Source: a bacterium (GTDB taxonomy: Bacteria > UBA8248). Taken from it: 64,000 bases of DNA. How positions within the stretch are numbered: position 1 is the first letter of the stretch; the number at the start of each line of letters is the position of its first letter. The stretch covers positions 3,296,001 to 3,360,000 of the forward strand of contig CBDBZU010000004.1 of assembly GCA_965213625.1 (NCBI GenBank), in the 5' to 3' direction. This document shows, one piece after another, positions 11,859 to 53,060 of this stretch. The notes under the pieces are model-generated. The model did not search any database, had not been told where the DNA came from, and saw only the letters and a program-made list of their open reading frames with translations. The translations under genes were made by a program, and so were the position numbers.

Positions 11859-12497
11859 TTAAGCCGTAACACCCTGCTCGGTGAGCAATTCATCGAGCAC
11901 CCGGTCAACCCTGGGCTGCTCCGTCCAACTCGCCTTGTAGGCGATATTCCCCTCTTTATCGATGACGAAGACCATGTTCGGCATGCGCCCGTAGGCGTTC
12001 ACCACCGCCTCGTCGACGTCGTCCACCAGAACGGGGATTTTCATCCCGAATTCAGCCACCAGTTCCTTCGCATAGTCCATCTTGTGTTCGAAGGTAGTGT
12101 GCTGGGTGTATTTTTTGAAGTACTTGCGCTCCTGCGCGTGGGGTTCCTTGGAGTAGACGACGAAGAATTCGACGTCCTTATCCTTGTAACGCTCTTGCAG
12201 TTCATCCATGCCCGGCACCTGCCGGCGGAAGGGCGGTCACGTGATGGCGCCGAACTCCAGGACGACGTTCTTCTTCTCGCGAAAATCGGCCAGGTCCACG
12301 GTTTCTCCCGACGTGCTCTGGAGTTTTACCGGAGGCGCGGGCTGGCCTGGTTTCAACTGATCCTCAAACGCCTTGTGGCGGACTTTCCTGAATCCGCTGA
12401 GCTCGCGCTTGATCATCAGAAACGGGTCCAGATACCACATACTCCACAAGCCCCCCAGGGGGCCGGGCGGCCTGTCGATAAAATCTTCTTTCTGCAT
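11859..12497 (-). CDS. Deiodinase-like thioredoxin-fold selenoprotein (predicted Sec87), 212 aa
   Basis: ORFs 12237-12497 and 11859-12218 are one frame joined across TGA 12239-12237, giving VLEFGAIT-U-PPFRRQ and VYSKEPH (compare deiodinase FGSCTUPPF and YIEEAH). Confidence 0.88.
12212..12225 (-). promoter_or_regulatory. Candidate bacterial SECIS element
   Basis: CCGGC-AGGU-GCCGG hairpin starting 11 nt after the UGA, G-containing apical loop. Confidence 0.7.
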
Positions 12498-48503: not shown

Positions 48504-48776
48504 ATGAGCCGAGCGCTGGTAATGCACCCGAAAGACAACGTGGCAACTGTGCTCGAGGACGTCTCCCCCGAGCAGAGCGTGGAAATCGAAGGCGGTGAAA
48601 AGATACTCACGCTCTCTGCATCAGAATCGGTTCCTTTTGGACACAAAATTGCGTTGCGTAAGATCCGCTCGAACGCAAAAGTGCTCAAATACGGCGAGGT
48701 CATCGGCACCGCCACACAAGAGATATCCGTCGGCAGTCACGTTCACGTCCATAACATCAAGAGCACAAGAGGCTAG
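48504..48776 (+). CDS. UxaA family dehydratase/lyase small (SAF) subunit
   Basis: HPKDNVA, PFGHKIA, KYGEVIG, HVHVHN. Confidence 0.88.
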   Translation: MSRALVMHPKDNVATVLEDVSPEQSVEIEGGEKILTLSASESVPFGHKIALRKIRSNAKVLKYGEVIGTATQEISVGSHVHVHNIKSTRG

Positions 48777-48778
48777 GC

Positions 48779-49957
48779 ATGGCCCGGAAAAAAGCAACTC
48801 CCACTTTCTGGGGCTACAGAAGACCTGAAGGTCCTCCGGGTGGGCGGAATCATCTCGCTATCGTCAGCGGAATGGACAATTCCAACCCCATCGTTCGAAG
48901 AATCGGTTCACTGGTGCGAGACGCCACCCCCGTCAACACCTCGTTCGGACGCGCCCTGATGGGCGAGGACGAGGCGCAACACTGGCGGGTCATGGGGCAC
49001 ACCGCCGCCCACCCGAACGTCGGGGCTGCCATCATCGTGAGCCTCGAACCCAAGAGCGCCAGCGCCATCGCGGAAGTAGCCGCGAGAACATCTCCCTGGA
49101 TGCCCATAGAAGCCGTAAACATCCAGGAGATTGGAGGCACGCTCAGCACCACCTCGCATGTCGTGGAACTCGCAACGAAACTTTCCGCCCATCTCGCATC
49201 CGCCAAGCGCGTCCGTTGTGAATTGGGTGAACTCACCATCGGGGCGGAATGCGGAGGATCAGATACAACCAGCGGCGTCATCTCGAACCCCGTGACGGGC
49301 ATGGTCGCAGACAGGGTCGTGGAAGCGGGGGGTTCGGTTATTTTTTCCGAAACGCTGGAAATCGTGGGCGCCGAGCATCTCCTCGCTCGTCGGGCTGCGG
49401 ACAAAAAAACGGCGCGGAGAATCATCGATTCCGCAAATAGCGCCGTCGATTACGCCGAAAGCATCGGCGTCGACTTCATCGGATCGAATCCGGCGCCGGA
49501 TAACATCCGGGGAGGTCTGTCGTCCATCGAGGAAAAAAGTCTGGGGGCTATAAAAAAAGCAGGGAGCCACCCCATCGTCGAGGTCGTAGGCGTAGGAGAA
49601 CGCCCCTCGAAGAAAGGCACCATCTTCGCCGACGCTCCCTGCGCGGGCGTAGAGAACATCTCCTCCCTGGCGGCCAGCGGGGCGCAGGCGATCATTTTCT
49701 CGACCGGAATCGGCAATCCTATCGGCCATCCCATCTCTCCCACCATCAAAGTGACCGGAAATCCCCGGACCGCGCGGACGATGGCCGAGAACATCGACGT
49801 GGACATCAGCGGCGTCATGGAGGGAACGATGCGAATCGATGAGGCGAAGAATTTGCTCGAAAAAGAACTGATAGCGGTGATGAGCGGTAAACTCACGACA
49901 TCGGAGCTTCTCGGAGAAACCGAACTCACGGTCAGCAGGGCCGCATTAAGCCTCTAA
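48779..49957 (+). CDS. UxaA family dehydratase/lyase large subunit
   Basis: GYRR, ECGGSDTTSG..SNP, NPAPDNIRGGLSSIEEKSLG. Confidence 0.9.
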   Translation: MARKKATPTFWGYRRPEGPPGGRNHLAIVSGMDNSNPIVRRIGSLVRDATPVNTSFGRALMGEDEAQHWRVMGHTAAHPNVGAAIIVSLEPKSASAIAEVAARTSPWMPIEAVNIQEIGGTLSTTSHVVELATKLSAHLASAKRVRCELGELTIGAECGGSDTTSGVISNPVTGMVADRVVEAGGSVIFSETLEIVGAEHLLARRAADKKTARRIIDSANSAVDYAESIGVDFIGSNPAPDNIRGGLSSIEEKSLGAIKKAGSHPIVEVVGVGERPSKKGTIFADAPCAGVENISSLAASGAQAIIFSTGIGNPIGHPISPTIKVTGNPRTARTMAENIDVDISGVMEGTMRIDEAKNLLEKELIAVMSGKLTTSELLGETELTVSRAALSL

Positions 49958-50004: not shown

Positions 50005-50517
50005 TTAAAAACCCATGCCCACAATGAGTCGATTCCAGGAGTTAATGAGCGCGATGGCTCCGAGAAGCTCCACAATCTGCGCTTCTGAATAGTGGGCCTT
50101 CAGCGCTTCAAACGTCTCATCCGAAATGCTCACTCCCTGCGTGCTCTCCTCGCAAAGGCGAAGCGCCGCCTTCTCCTTCTCATCGAAGACGTCACTCGAA
50201 GAACCCTCTTGCGCGGCTTTCGTCTTCTCGTCTCCTGCCTTGTGCATCCTTGCCATGTTGGAATGCATGTTGGTGCAAAAATGACACCCGTTTAGCACCG
50301 ACGCCCGAATGTTCAAGATTTCCTTGAAGCCGACGTCGATCTCCCCCGGGCCGTCCGCCACCGTGGTCAGGCTCAGCAAAGAACGCAAAAAATCCGGTTT
50401 GTGGGCCAGCGCCTTTACCGGAGGAATCACGATGCCGAATTGTTTTTTCAGATTCTCCATGATGCGTTTCGCGGATGCTTCCGCCTGCTCGGGCTCTAAC
50501 AAGGAAATCCGTGGCAT
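50005..50517 (-). CDS. AhpD/carboxymuconolactone decarboxylase family protein
   Basis: SVLNGCHFCTNMH (CxxC..H), NSWNR. Confidence 0.88.
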   Translation of the reverse strand: MPRISLLEPEQAEASAKRIMENLKKQFGIVIPPVKALAHKPDFLRSLLSLTTVADGPGEIDVGFKEILNIRASVLNGCHFCTNMHSNMARMHKAGDEKTKAAQEGSSSDVFDEKEKAALRLCEESTQGVSISDETFEALKAHYSEAQIVELLGAIALINSWNRLIVGMGF

Positions 50518-50750
50518 TCCATGCTCCTTAGATAGATTCGTCTGAATGTGAGCTTACTAAAAAAAGACATACTCTTTTCACAGATATTTACGCCACCTCA
50601 AGGCTACCGGTCAACGAATACGCTAAAATCATCCCTCTTTCAGCAGCTATACGTATGAGCGCAAGCACATATCATCAACATTTGTTAAACTATGCCCCAT
50701 AATTTGTGTTACCCACATCATGCGCCCAAAACGAGTGGATGGAAGCTGCC

Positions 50751-51578
50751 ATGAGCAAGCAAATGTCCTTACGAGAAGCCGCTTCTCTCATTGAAGGAGG
50801 AGACGCAATAAGTCCCGGCGGCACCCTCTTGCACAGAACACCCGCCGCCCTCATCCGTGAAATTGCGCGCGCGGGCCTTCGGGATCTCATGCTCATCAAA
50901 CCCTCTCCCGGATACGACGCCGATCTCCTTTGCGCCGCAGGGGCCGTGAAGAGAATCATCAGCGGCATCGTCACATTCGAGGCGGAATTCGGATTGGCGC
51001 CTCACTACCGGAAGGCGATTGAAAAGGGCTTGACCGGCCTCACCGAACACGCCTGAGCCAGTGTTCTGGCAGGGCTGCGGGCCGCAGCCTACGGCGTTCC
51101 ATTCCAGCCCATTCGCGGTTTCGACGGGAGCGACATTCCGGAACAAAGCGGCATATTCACGATGGAAGATCCCTACACGAAAGAGGAACTCTATGCGATT
51201 CCCGCTCTCAAGCCGGACTGGGCATTAATACACGTCCAGAAATCTGACCCGCATGGAAACGCGCAAATCCTGGGCAACCAGCAATTCGACGTTGAAATGA
51301 CGCGCGCGGCACAAAATGGCGTCATTCTCACGACCGAGAAAATCGTAGACCCCGAAGAGATCGCAGCGGAACCGGAGAGAACCACCATTCCAGGCTTTCT
51401 CGTCAAAGCTGTTGTGGAAACGCCGGGCGGAGCGTCTCCCTGCAGTTGCCATCCATACTATGGGGTCGACAAAGACGAAATGAAACGTTACATGACCTTG
51501 ACTCAGAGCCCGGACGGGCTTCGGGAATATCTTGCGAGCACCGACAAAACACACACACAAGATGCGGTGACAAAATAG
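50751..51578 (+). CDS. Family I CoA-transferase-fold alpha subunit, predicted selenoprotein (Sec102), 275 aa
   Basis: ORFs 50706-51056 and 51162-51578 share a frame; reading through TGA 51054-51056 gives TEHA-U-ASVLAGLRAAAYGVPFQP, then PALKPDWALIHVQKSDPHGN. Confidence 0.85.
51057..51090 (+). promoter_or_regulatory. Candidate bacterial SECIS element
   Basis: GCCAG-UGUU-CUGGC hairpin immediately after UGA, then GGCUGCG-GGC-CGCAGCC (51073-51089) with G-led apical loop. Confidence 0.6.
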
Positions 51579-51580
51579 CG

Positions 51581-52333
51581 ATGGGCAATCGTCTGGCTTC
51601 GTTGCCCAAGCACGTAATTCGCGCGGGAAACCAGATGGCCGTCACACTCTCGCGCCTCATCCAAGATGGCGAGAAGGTGTTCCACGGCGTCAACTCCCCG
51701 CTTCCCATGGTCGCGATCTTTTTGGCCAAGAAACGACATGCCCCCAATTGCTCGCTTATAGAAGTCGCGGGTTCGGTGGACCCTCAACCGCGCTTCATGC
51801 CGAATAGCACGGCCGACCCTGAACTCTGCCATGGCGCGGCTTCCATGTTCTACAACCCGGACATGTACGATCTTTTTGCTCGCGGCGGGGTGGACATGGC
51901 TTTCCTGGGGGCCGCCCAACTCGACAAACAAGGGCGAGCCAACATGAGCTACATCGGCGACCCGTTCCAGCCGAAAGTGAAGCTTCCCGGCGGAGGGGGA
52001 GGCGCCGTCATCATGCCTCAGGTGAAACGCACCGTCATATGGCGAACTTTGCACGACAGGCGATTTCTCGTACCCCGGGTCGATTTCTCTACCCAATCAG
52101 GCAGTCTAAGCCACTTGGTGACACCTATCGCTTTGTTCGAGAAAAAACCCACAGGGCTCGAAATTGCCAGTGTTCACCCTGGCCACTCGATGAATGAAGT
52201 GATCGAGAATACCGGCTTCGAACTGGAACACCCGAGCGTCGTGGCGCAAACTACCGCGCCAAACGCCGAAGAACTGAACGCCCTGGAGGAACTCGACCCT
52301 GATGGCGTGCGCTTTACGGAATTCCGTTTTTAG
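51581..52333 (+). CDS. Family I CoA-transferase-fold beta subunit
   Basis: HAP, FLGAAQLDKQGRAN, KLPGGGG, SVHPG, ENTGF; starts 2 nt after alpha stop. Confidence 0.9.
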   Translation: MGNRLASLPKHVIRAGNQMAVTLSRLIQDGEKVFHGVNSPLPMVAIFLAKKRHAPNCSLIEVAGSVDPQPRFMPNSTADPELCHGAASMFYNPDMYDLFARGGVDMAFLGAAQLDKQGRANMSYIGDPFQPKVKLPGGGGGAVIMPQVKRTVIWRTLHDRRFLVPRVDFSTQSGSLSHLVTPIALFEKKPTGLEIASVHPGHSMNEVIENTGFELEHPSVVAQTTAPNAEELNALEELDPDGVRFTEFRF

Positions 52334-52418: not shown

Positions 52419-53060
52419 ATGAGTAATGACTTGGTAAATCGATTAAGGAGCTATTCAGCCTGTCAGGCGGCAGACGCTTTTGACAAATTGAAGATCAGGG
52501 GCCACATGCCCGACATTATCCTGTTGTCTCCCGACCCTGATTACAGGATGGTGGGGGAAGCCCATACCGTTCGAATGGTTCCCGCCGGCGGCGGACCGCT
52601 GCCCAAACGCGAGGTGCACCACATCGACGCGGCGCCCGAGGGCAGCATCGTCGTCATCAGCATCCCGCCCGGAGTCACGACGGCCAACTGGGGCGGGATG
52701 ATGACCACGCGGGCGAAGGTGATGAACCTCGCAGGTGTCGTCCTGGACGGCAGGGCAAGGGACATTGAAGAACACCGCCATGCGGGTTTTCCCGTGTTCG
52801 CCAGGGGGGTATCGGTTCACGGCAGCGGCGGGTATACGGTTCCCATCAGTGTGGGAGAGCCGATCAATTGCGGGGGCGTCGCGGTGAGGCAGGGAGACAT
52901 CATTCTTGGCGACGTAAACGGCGTTGTCGTCATCCCCGTGGAAAGGCTCGAGGAAGTCATCGACAAGATGGATGAACTGGCGGAAATCGAAGAAAGAATC
53001 ATCGCGGAACTCGACAAAGGCGTGAGCATTGGTGAGGCATTCTCCAGGCACAGAAACTAG
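52419..53060 (+). CDS. RraA family protein (HMG/CHA aldolase-like)
   Basis: WGGMM, DGRARD, GDIILGDVNGVVVIP. Confidence 0.9.
   Translation: MSNDLVNRLRSYSACQAADAFDKLKIRGHMPDIILLSPDPDYRMVGEAHTVRMVPAGGGPLPKREVHHIDAAPEGSIVVISIPPGVTTANWGGMMTTRAKVMNLAGVVLDGRARDIEEHRHAGFPVFARGVSVHGSGGYTVPISVGEPINCGGVAVRQGDIILGDVNGVVVIPVERLEEVIDKMDELAEIEERIIAELDKGVSIGEAFSRHRN

Follow-up and report, generated by a model that had tools for sequence, protein, structure and literature searches.

In a stretch of bacterial DNA of 64,000 nucleotides (nt) (contig CBDBZU010000004.1 of assembly GCA_965213625.1, positions 3,296,001 to 3,360,000; hereafter the window), a gene for the alpha subunit of a protein with the coenzyme A (CoA)-transferase fold is interrupted by a single in-frame TGA. 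We rate this gene as a new selenoprotein family and as a cysteine/selenocysteine (Cys/Sec) version of enzymes of the IpdAB/AibAB type. The comparisons below make it very probable that the product is the Sec-containing alpha subunit of a non-classical alpha/beta enzyme, in which Sec102 is predicted to act as active-site nucleophile or base. The gene, its UGA and the adjoining beta subunit gene are placed as follows:

50751-51578, + strand: alpha subunit gene, 275 codons with a single UGA read through; CoA-transferase fold, glutaconate-CoA-transferase/IpdA/AibA branch.
51054-51056, + strand: UGA, the putative selenocysteine codon (U102); TGA at the same site in orthologues, Cys codons in paralogues and homologues.
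51581-52333, + strand: beta subunit gene, 250 amino acids (aa), starting 2 nt past the alpha stop codon; PF01144, E 1.5e-17.

The alpha frame is open throughout except for the TGA at codon 102, and under the standard code it falls into two pieces of the same frame, 50706-51056 and, counted from the first ATG, 51162-51578. The Pfam family CoA_trans (PF01144) spans the TGA as one match covering alpha residues 5-223 (E 1.5e-20). An earlier reading made from the letters alone (hereafter the sequence-only reading) had joined the two open reading frame (ORF) fragments into one gene split only by this TGA, and both the frame and the Pfam match confirm it. The same reading had recognised the conserved family motif in the 35 codons 3' of the TGA, and 80 aligned sequences bear this out, with A111 invariant and G115, P117 and P120 nearly so. 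Among pairs with unsaturated synonymous divergence (dS), the ratio of nonsynonymous to synonymous substitution (dN/dS) lies at 0.10-0.18 for the 101 codons before the TGA and in the same range for the 165-173 codons after it. Contigs with the whole alpha gene, approximately 94% alike, are also present in sequencing runs from other studies (X5, X11), and none of the 40 differences listed falls on TGA 51054-51056, 14 further differences not being displayed. One run with such a contig is labelled as a sponge metagenome.

Searching 51 genomes of the phylum in six frames (their records are labelled Nitrospinota) gave 35 occurrences of the orthologue, each with exactly one TGA, in 34 of these genomes and at identities from 100% down to 64%; the 34 genomes belong to five genera of one family. 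The TGA stands at the identical site in every one of the 30 orthologous loci retrieved, within the motif TEHA-U-[AP]S[VI]LAGLRAAAYG. A second set, drawn from one genome per species across all prokaryotes, gave 80 loci, and in the 72 resolved by sequence pattern the site reads TGA in 35, TGC in 27 and TGT in 10, i.e., Cys in 37. Seventeen of the 35 TGA loci are of the Nitrospinota type, with record labels that read Nitrospinota, uncultured Nitrospinaceae or Candidatus Tectomicrobia or give no taxon name. The other 18 carry the labels Methylomirabilia, Chloroflexi, Thermodesulfobacteriota, ANGP1, Bacillota and Beta-/Gammaproteobacteria, and include two metagenome-assembled genomes (MAGs) labelled Streptomyces and Chitinophaga, whose binning is not to be trusted.

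Cys is also the prevailing residue at site 102 among 79 database homologues (Cys 59, Glu 11, His 1, Ser 1, Gln 1). The remaining six are gene calls of 166-170 aa, one of them annotated 'hypothetical protein', which start 3-7 alignment columns past site 102, the pattern expected of a gene caller at an unrecognised Sec codon. TGA and Cys alternate at the site, the outcome that the sequence-only reading had named as support for Sec, while Trp, Arg and Gly occur in none of the 79 and Ser in one. Nearly every genome of the family holds a Cys paralogue of approximately 46-53% identity, and site 102 is TGC or TGT in 19 of 19 same-phylum paralogues. A maximum likelihood tree inferred from 102 distinct sequences, the column of site 102 being masked, requires at least four changes of the Sec/Cys label, three of them forced by well-supported branches. 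The closest full-length database protein is a Cys form, 56% identical, and the closer database relatives are shortened gene calls. One genome of the set (G029), with an estimated contamination of 16%, has two copies of the Sec gene (C1:42516-43334 and C8:999548-1000366), which may come from two strains.

Two hairpins lie 3' of the UGA:

51072-51090, + strand: SECIS-like (selenocysteine insertion sequence-like) hairpin GGGCUGCG-GGC-CGCAGCCU, 8 base pairs (bp), from the RNAalifold consensus; apical loop GGC at 51080-51082.
51057-51070, + strand: small hairpin GCCAG-UGUU-CUGGC, weakly supported, directly 3' of the UGA.

The 8-bp stem starts 18 nt downstream of the U of the UGA and is fully paired in all 29 distinct orthologues used for the consensus and the pairing counts, the only changes being U-A to U-G in two sequences and G-C to G-U in three. 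Synonymous-codon entropy, taken in 7-codon windows, is lowest in the gene where this stem lies, at codons 108-114 (0.089; gene mean 0.618). In Cys paralogues from the same genomes a near-identical peptide, GLRA[AS]AY, is kept despite free codon choice, with three to four codons per site (e.g., GGC/GGT/GGG/GGA, CTG/CTT/CTC/TTG and CGC/CGG/AGG/CGA). The small hairpin is 82% paired, and one of its pairs shows compensatory changes, yet 17 of the 29 sequences are unpaired at that pair.

The same difference between Sec and Cys forms was found across clades, where we measured the longest perfect stem starting 12-26 nt past the UGA in 50 distinct Sec and 52 Cys forms. The stem averages 7.96 bp in the Sec forms and reaches at least 7 bp in 47 of 50, with the best stem displayed per Sec motif group starting at +17 to +19; every Sec clade has a hairpin at this distance. 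In the Cys forms it averages 5.0 bp and reaches at least 7 bp in 7 of 52, with scattered start positions. Methylomirabilia and ANGP1 have the stem GGGAUGC...GCAUCC with a compensatory change of C-G to A-U, at the cost of Leu to Met and Ala to Ser in the protein. It appears, from these sequences, that the RNA signal constrains the protein in the clades concerned, the two substitutions of one clade preserving the pairing of the hairpin. The substitutions together with a paired stem are seen at alpha codons 109 and 113 of loci L089, L090, L103 and L129. In a proteobacterial clade the 3' arm comes one codon earlier (GGGGCUG-CGUG-CAGCCUC).

The host genome has the machinery that Sec insertion needs, which the sequence-only reading had proposed to look for: selA (564 bits), which adjoins selB (388 bits), selD (333 bits) and tRNA-Sec (75.9 bits), all above curated cut-offs. 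The selD gene (L068, G000:C4:1518852-1519814) holds one in-frame TGA, and the host selenophosphate synthetase is probably itself a selenoprotein. Across the phylum selB occurs in 48 of 51 genomes, the three without it being 67-91% complete, and therefore a test of co-occurrence with selB does not discriminate. A second Sec gene in the window, also seen by the sequence-only reading, is borne out:

11859-12497, - strand: second Sec gene, deiodinase family, thioredoxin fold, motif GAIT-U-PPF; TGA at 12237-12239.

It matches NF038285 with E 8e-32 and 111 bits, under the curated cut-off of 250, and every other TGA-split candidate frame that was tested was negative. Codon-position GC content, tried as a filter for further Sec genes, failed to pick up even the alpha gene and was dropped. 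Codon conservation, Cys homologues, the hairpin, the machinery and selection jointly predict that UGA-102 inserts Sec, and we regard this as nearly certain.

The residue at position 102 was compared with those of characterised enzymes of the same fold. U102 aligns to the Glu of MDEGM in IpdA, whether the single sequence (E ~1e-29) or a profile built from the Cys/Sec clade (E ~1e-39) is used, confirming a gap-free alignment of TEHA-U to REMD-E of IpdA that the sequence-only reading had proposed. In Crowe et al. 2018 (PNAS), IpdA Glu105 is reported to be the catalytic base. Comparison of PDB 6coj_A with 6co6_A shows a change of Glu to Ala at the residue aligned to U102, and the title of 6COJ is 'IpdAB E105A COCHEA-COA complex'; U102 thus corresponds to the residue that the depositors removed to trap the substrate complex. 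The AlphaFold model of alpha (mean predicted local distance difference test, pLDDT, 92.4) was matched by Foldseek with template modelling (TM) scores of 0.88-0.89 to IpdA and GctA and of 0.85 to AibA. In the model a strand at 96-99 is followed by a helix at 102-113, of which U102 is the first residue, and a helix start after a strand is, we infer, a common setting for activated thiols. The location of U102 in the active site is very likely on these alignments, and its being the catalytic residue is somewhat better supported than not.

IpdAB, the COCHEA-CoA hydrolase of steroid ring catabolism (PDB 6CO6, 6CO9, 6COJ, 6CON), shares the alpha/beta family I fold with the window pair, at a root-mean-square deviation of 2.0 Å and 31% identity. 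In both, the canonical beta Glu is absent and the functional residue would lie in alpha, aligned with U102; they differ in that IpdA has Glu105 where the window family has Sec or Cys. By sequence, however, the best solved relative of both subunits is AibA/AibB, the 3-methylglutaconyl-CoA decarboxylase of Myxococcus xanthus (PDB 5MZW to 5N03), with E 3e-32 for alpha and E 5e-36 for beta. AibB likewise has no beta Glu, with Cys56 in its place where the window beta has Val. The AibAB paper reportedly describes an enzyme that works without a catalytic side chain.

The classical family I CoA-transferases, e.g., GctAB (PDB 1POI), also have this fold, with PF01144 in both subunits, and GctA has Ser at the position of U102 in sequence and profile alignments. 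In glutaconate CoA-transferase (GCT) Glu54-beta is essential, and it is absent in IpdAB, according to PMC5380842, which agrees with the statement of the sequence-only reading that classical members use a beta Glu. With the third, GctAB-like paralogue pair of the host genome (L069, G000:C4:1896963-1905745; 1POI, E 1e-42) as intermediary, Glu54-beta maps to Cys56 of AibB and to Val62 of the window beta. The hallmark beta Glu of family I CoA-transferases is consequently missing from the window beta, and the canonical position holds Val in 75, Ile in 48 and Glu in none of 123 beta segments of the Cys/Sec clade. The third pair, in contrast, retains Glu at the canonical beta position, and its alpha-102 residue is His instead of Cys, such that the host genome maintains a separate GctAB-like pair. 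This pair has a LysR regulator, an M20 peptidase and a luciferase-like monooxygenase as neighbours. The pattern in this comparison is complementary, with either a beta Glu or else Glu, Cys or Sec at alpha-102, and this is our main argument for chemistry at position 102 in the Cys/Sec clade.

Taken together, the following mechanism is proposed. UGA-102 would be decoded as Sec through the +18 hairpin, SelA, SelB, SelD and tRNA-Sec; the alpha/beta enzyme would be a non-canonical member of the CoA-transferase fold; Sec102, Cys in the sister forms, would be its active-site nucleophile or base; and a bound acyl-CoA or related carboxylate would be transformed as in IpdAB and AibAB. The enzyme is probably not a classical CoA-transferase, and a conclusion of the sequence-only reading to the same effect is supported by the 123 beta segments without the canonical Glu. 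The classical ping-pong mechanism passes through a glutamyl-CoA thioester, which neither Cys nor Sec can form, and ordinary CoA transfer through residue 102 is thereby excluded chemically. Furthermore, Sec marks residues that do chemistry, and the Cys-bearing proteins annotated 'glutaconate CoA-transferase subunit A' are thus probably not transferases; these widespread proteins probably use the Cys at site 102.

What the chemistry might be can be suggested tentatively. The EH[AS][C/U] clade could form a third mechanistic class, in which catalysis has moved from the beta Glu to an alpha Cys or Sec, a covalent acyl-thioester or acyl-selenoester forms as in thiolase, the acyl-CoA is cut or rearranged, and an AhpD-like CxxC partner keeps the selenol reduced in Nitrospinota; we hold this to be possible, at less than even odds. 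If it were true, the clade would include a non-redox selenoenzyme with new chemistry. The narrower suggestion, by analogy, of a thiolase-like or selenoester cleavage of a C-C or C-S bond is more doubtful still.

The genes around the pair, which bear on its partners and substrate, are as follows:

50005-50517, - strand: CMD/AhpD-like gene with a CHFC (CxxC) motif, divergent from alpha; in 28 of 30 orthologous loci.
52419-53060, + strand: RraA-like gene of the aldolase/decarboxylase family, downstream of beta; in 27 of 30 orthologous loci, some of the loci without this or the CMD/AhpD-like gene ending early.
48504-48776, + strand: SAF-like small ORF, 90 aa, part of a split UxaA/galactarate-dehydratase-like pair upstream of the cluster.
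48779-49957, + strand: UxaA/galactarate-dehydratase-like large ORF, 392 aa, 2 nt past the SAF-like ORF.

The order CMD/AhpD-like (divergent), alpha-U, beta, RraA-like is found in four genera, and the split UxaA-like pair occurs only in loci of the window's genus or in loci at least 80% identical to the window alpha. In one genus alpha-U, beta and alpha-Cys follow each other in tandem, with no CMD or RraA-like gene nearby. The order alpha-Sec, beta, alpha-Cys is seen in this one genus and in one further MAG (L048, L049, L053, L099). Searching by tblastn past the Cys alpha of these four loci found no second beta, and the two alpha subunits may share the one beta. The CMD/AhpD-like protein, which has a weak match to the NCBIfam model 'YciW-related (seleno)protein' (79.9 bits, cut-off 310), may be the redox partner of the Sec enzyme.

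The context differs from that of IpdAB: the steroid genes (crotonase EchA20, IpdC, FadD3) are absent, and the window neighbours are CMD/AhpD-like, RraA-like, UxaA-like and RlpA, none of those examined matching crotonase, acyl-CoA ligase or reductase families. Both cultured isolates considered, Comamonas thiooxydans and Piscinibacter sakaiensis, have the Cys form beside an enoyl-CoA hydratase and an AMP-forming ligase, and in Comamonas thiooxydans a family III CoA-transferase is also adjacent. The neighbours of these Cys forms suggest, by analogy, that the alpha/beta enzyme may be supplied with a preformed CoA thioester, in the manner of IpdAB and AibAB.

The strongest alternative to catalysis by Sec102 is a true CoA-transferase, in which beta Glu61 forms the acyl-anhydride and CoA-thioester intermediates and Sec102 is supporting or redox-regulatory, possibly serviced by the AhpD-like protein. 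In the window beta, Glu61 stands one residue ahead of the canonical position (IEVAGS). This +6 Glu is shared by every beta subunit of the Nitrospinota Sec type (47 of 123 segments) and could be a shifted canonical glutamate for that subgroup. The regular presence of the AhpD-like CHFC gene beside the Sec gene fits a redox role as well, and the selenoproteins known so far are mostly redox proteins according to two reviews (PMC13188914, PMC9312934). However, only the Nitrospinota Sec type has Glu ahead of the canonical position; in every other Sec or Cys clade +6 is Asn, Ser or Thr and +7 is Val or Ile, leaving most of the family without any beta Glu. The alignment of HAP...AGS is free of gaps, which puts Glu61 out of register with Glu54-beta of GCT, and Sec forms outside this bacterial family have no AhpD-like gene alongside. 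A true transferase is on balance unlikely.

Catalysis by Sec102, introduced through the +18 hairpin, is nevertheless opposed by several observations besides this shifted Glu. AibA, the closest solved relative in sequence, has Gly at the position of U102. The window cluster contains no CoA ligase or crotonase, and the characterised relatives of its RraA-like and UxaA-like neighbours have free acids as substrates; a CoA-thioester substrate can therefore not be inferred from the Nitrospinota cluster. On the side of the RNA, the 67 nt past the UGA fold no better than chance (z -0.56, 54 of 200 shuffles folding as well), and the minimum free energy from +3 to +63 does not separate Sec from Cys forms (-21.9 vs -20.7, p 0.50). 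The stem of the Nitrospinota orthologues hardly varies and has no two-sided compensatory changes. The SECIS features of the bSECISearch description, a stem-loop close behind the UGA whose apical loop has an early G, are present here as the 8-bp stem at +18 with its GGC loop. As the motif is GC-rich, crude energy is uninformative, and the position-specific hairpin and synonymous sites were examined instead; as the stem barely varies, covariation statistics are likewise uninformative, and the evidence lies in the synonymous sites. The sequence-only reading had noted hairpins after the UGA, and of this the one specific 8-bp hairpin at 51072-51090 stands, while the overall folding energy resembles that of shuffled sequences. 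A scan against Rfam gave no relevant match; Rfam is not known to include a general bacterial SECIS model.

Reading the TGA as a real stop, be it in a pseudogene, through a sequencing error or between two separately translated halves, is highly improbable. In its favour, public gene callers give the C-terminal piece alone in the six short homologues. A stop would, however, have to persist across 34 genomes whose identities reach down to 64%, and across the 18 loci labelled as other phyla, with purifying selection on both sides. The next in-frame start lies 36 codons downstream (51162), and a restart there loses the best-conserved motif of the family. We rejected pseudogene, sequencing error and split gene on the conservation of the TGA, this selection and the contigs of other runs, whose listed differences leave the TGA unchanged. 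An altered genetic code in which UGA is a standard amino acid (Trp, Gly or Cys) has a negligible chance and was ruled out by intact table-11 frames, since leuS (873 aa), hflX, mgtE, selA and selB are open with no internal TGA, single TGAs are confined to isolated genes that are each backed by a Cys-bearing family, and the Sec machinery is complete and accompanied by a position-specific hairpin.

Compared with bacterial Sec/Cys families such as the deiodinase-like and AhpD-like proteins, the window gene is similar in its in-frame UGA, Cys homologues, coding-region hairpin and dependence on selABCD. It differs in having neither a thioredoxin-like nor another typical redox fold, and in that its Sec replaces the acid/base Glu of the nearest characterised enzyme. 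Full-text searches of the literature, supplementary tables aside, found no protein of the CoA-transferase family called a selenoprotein. The CoA-transferase-fold family is not listed in the accessible parts of the prokaryotic selenoprotein reviews, the deep-Sep paper and the Haft preprint (PMC13188914, PMC12013277, PMC9312934, bioRxiv 10.1101/2022.07.06.499078), and it is missing from the selenoprotein family table of a 2026 review. NCBIfam release 20.0 has no family-specific model for alpha, the best matches scoring 35.8 bits (cut-off 128.5) and 30.5 bits (cut-off 315). The predicted selenoprotein family would therefore be added in a fold not known to use selenium, in records of several phyla that are almost all uncultured. 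It also brings to light an error in public annotation, in that gene calls cut alpha at the UGA and leave C-terminal stubs (6 of 79 homologues). A literature search found no paper describing a member of the Cys type, a form which is present in the cultured bacteria Comamonas, Achromobacter, Piscinibacter and Streptomyces.

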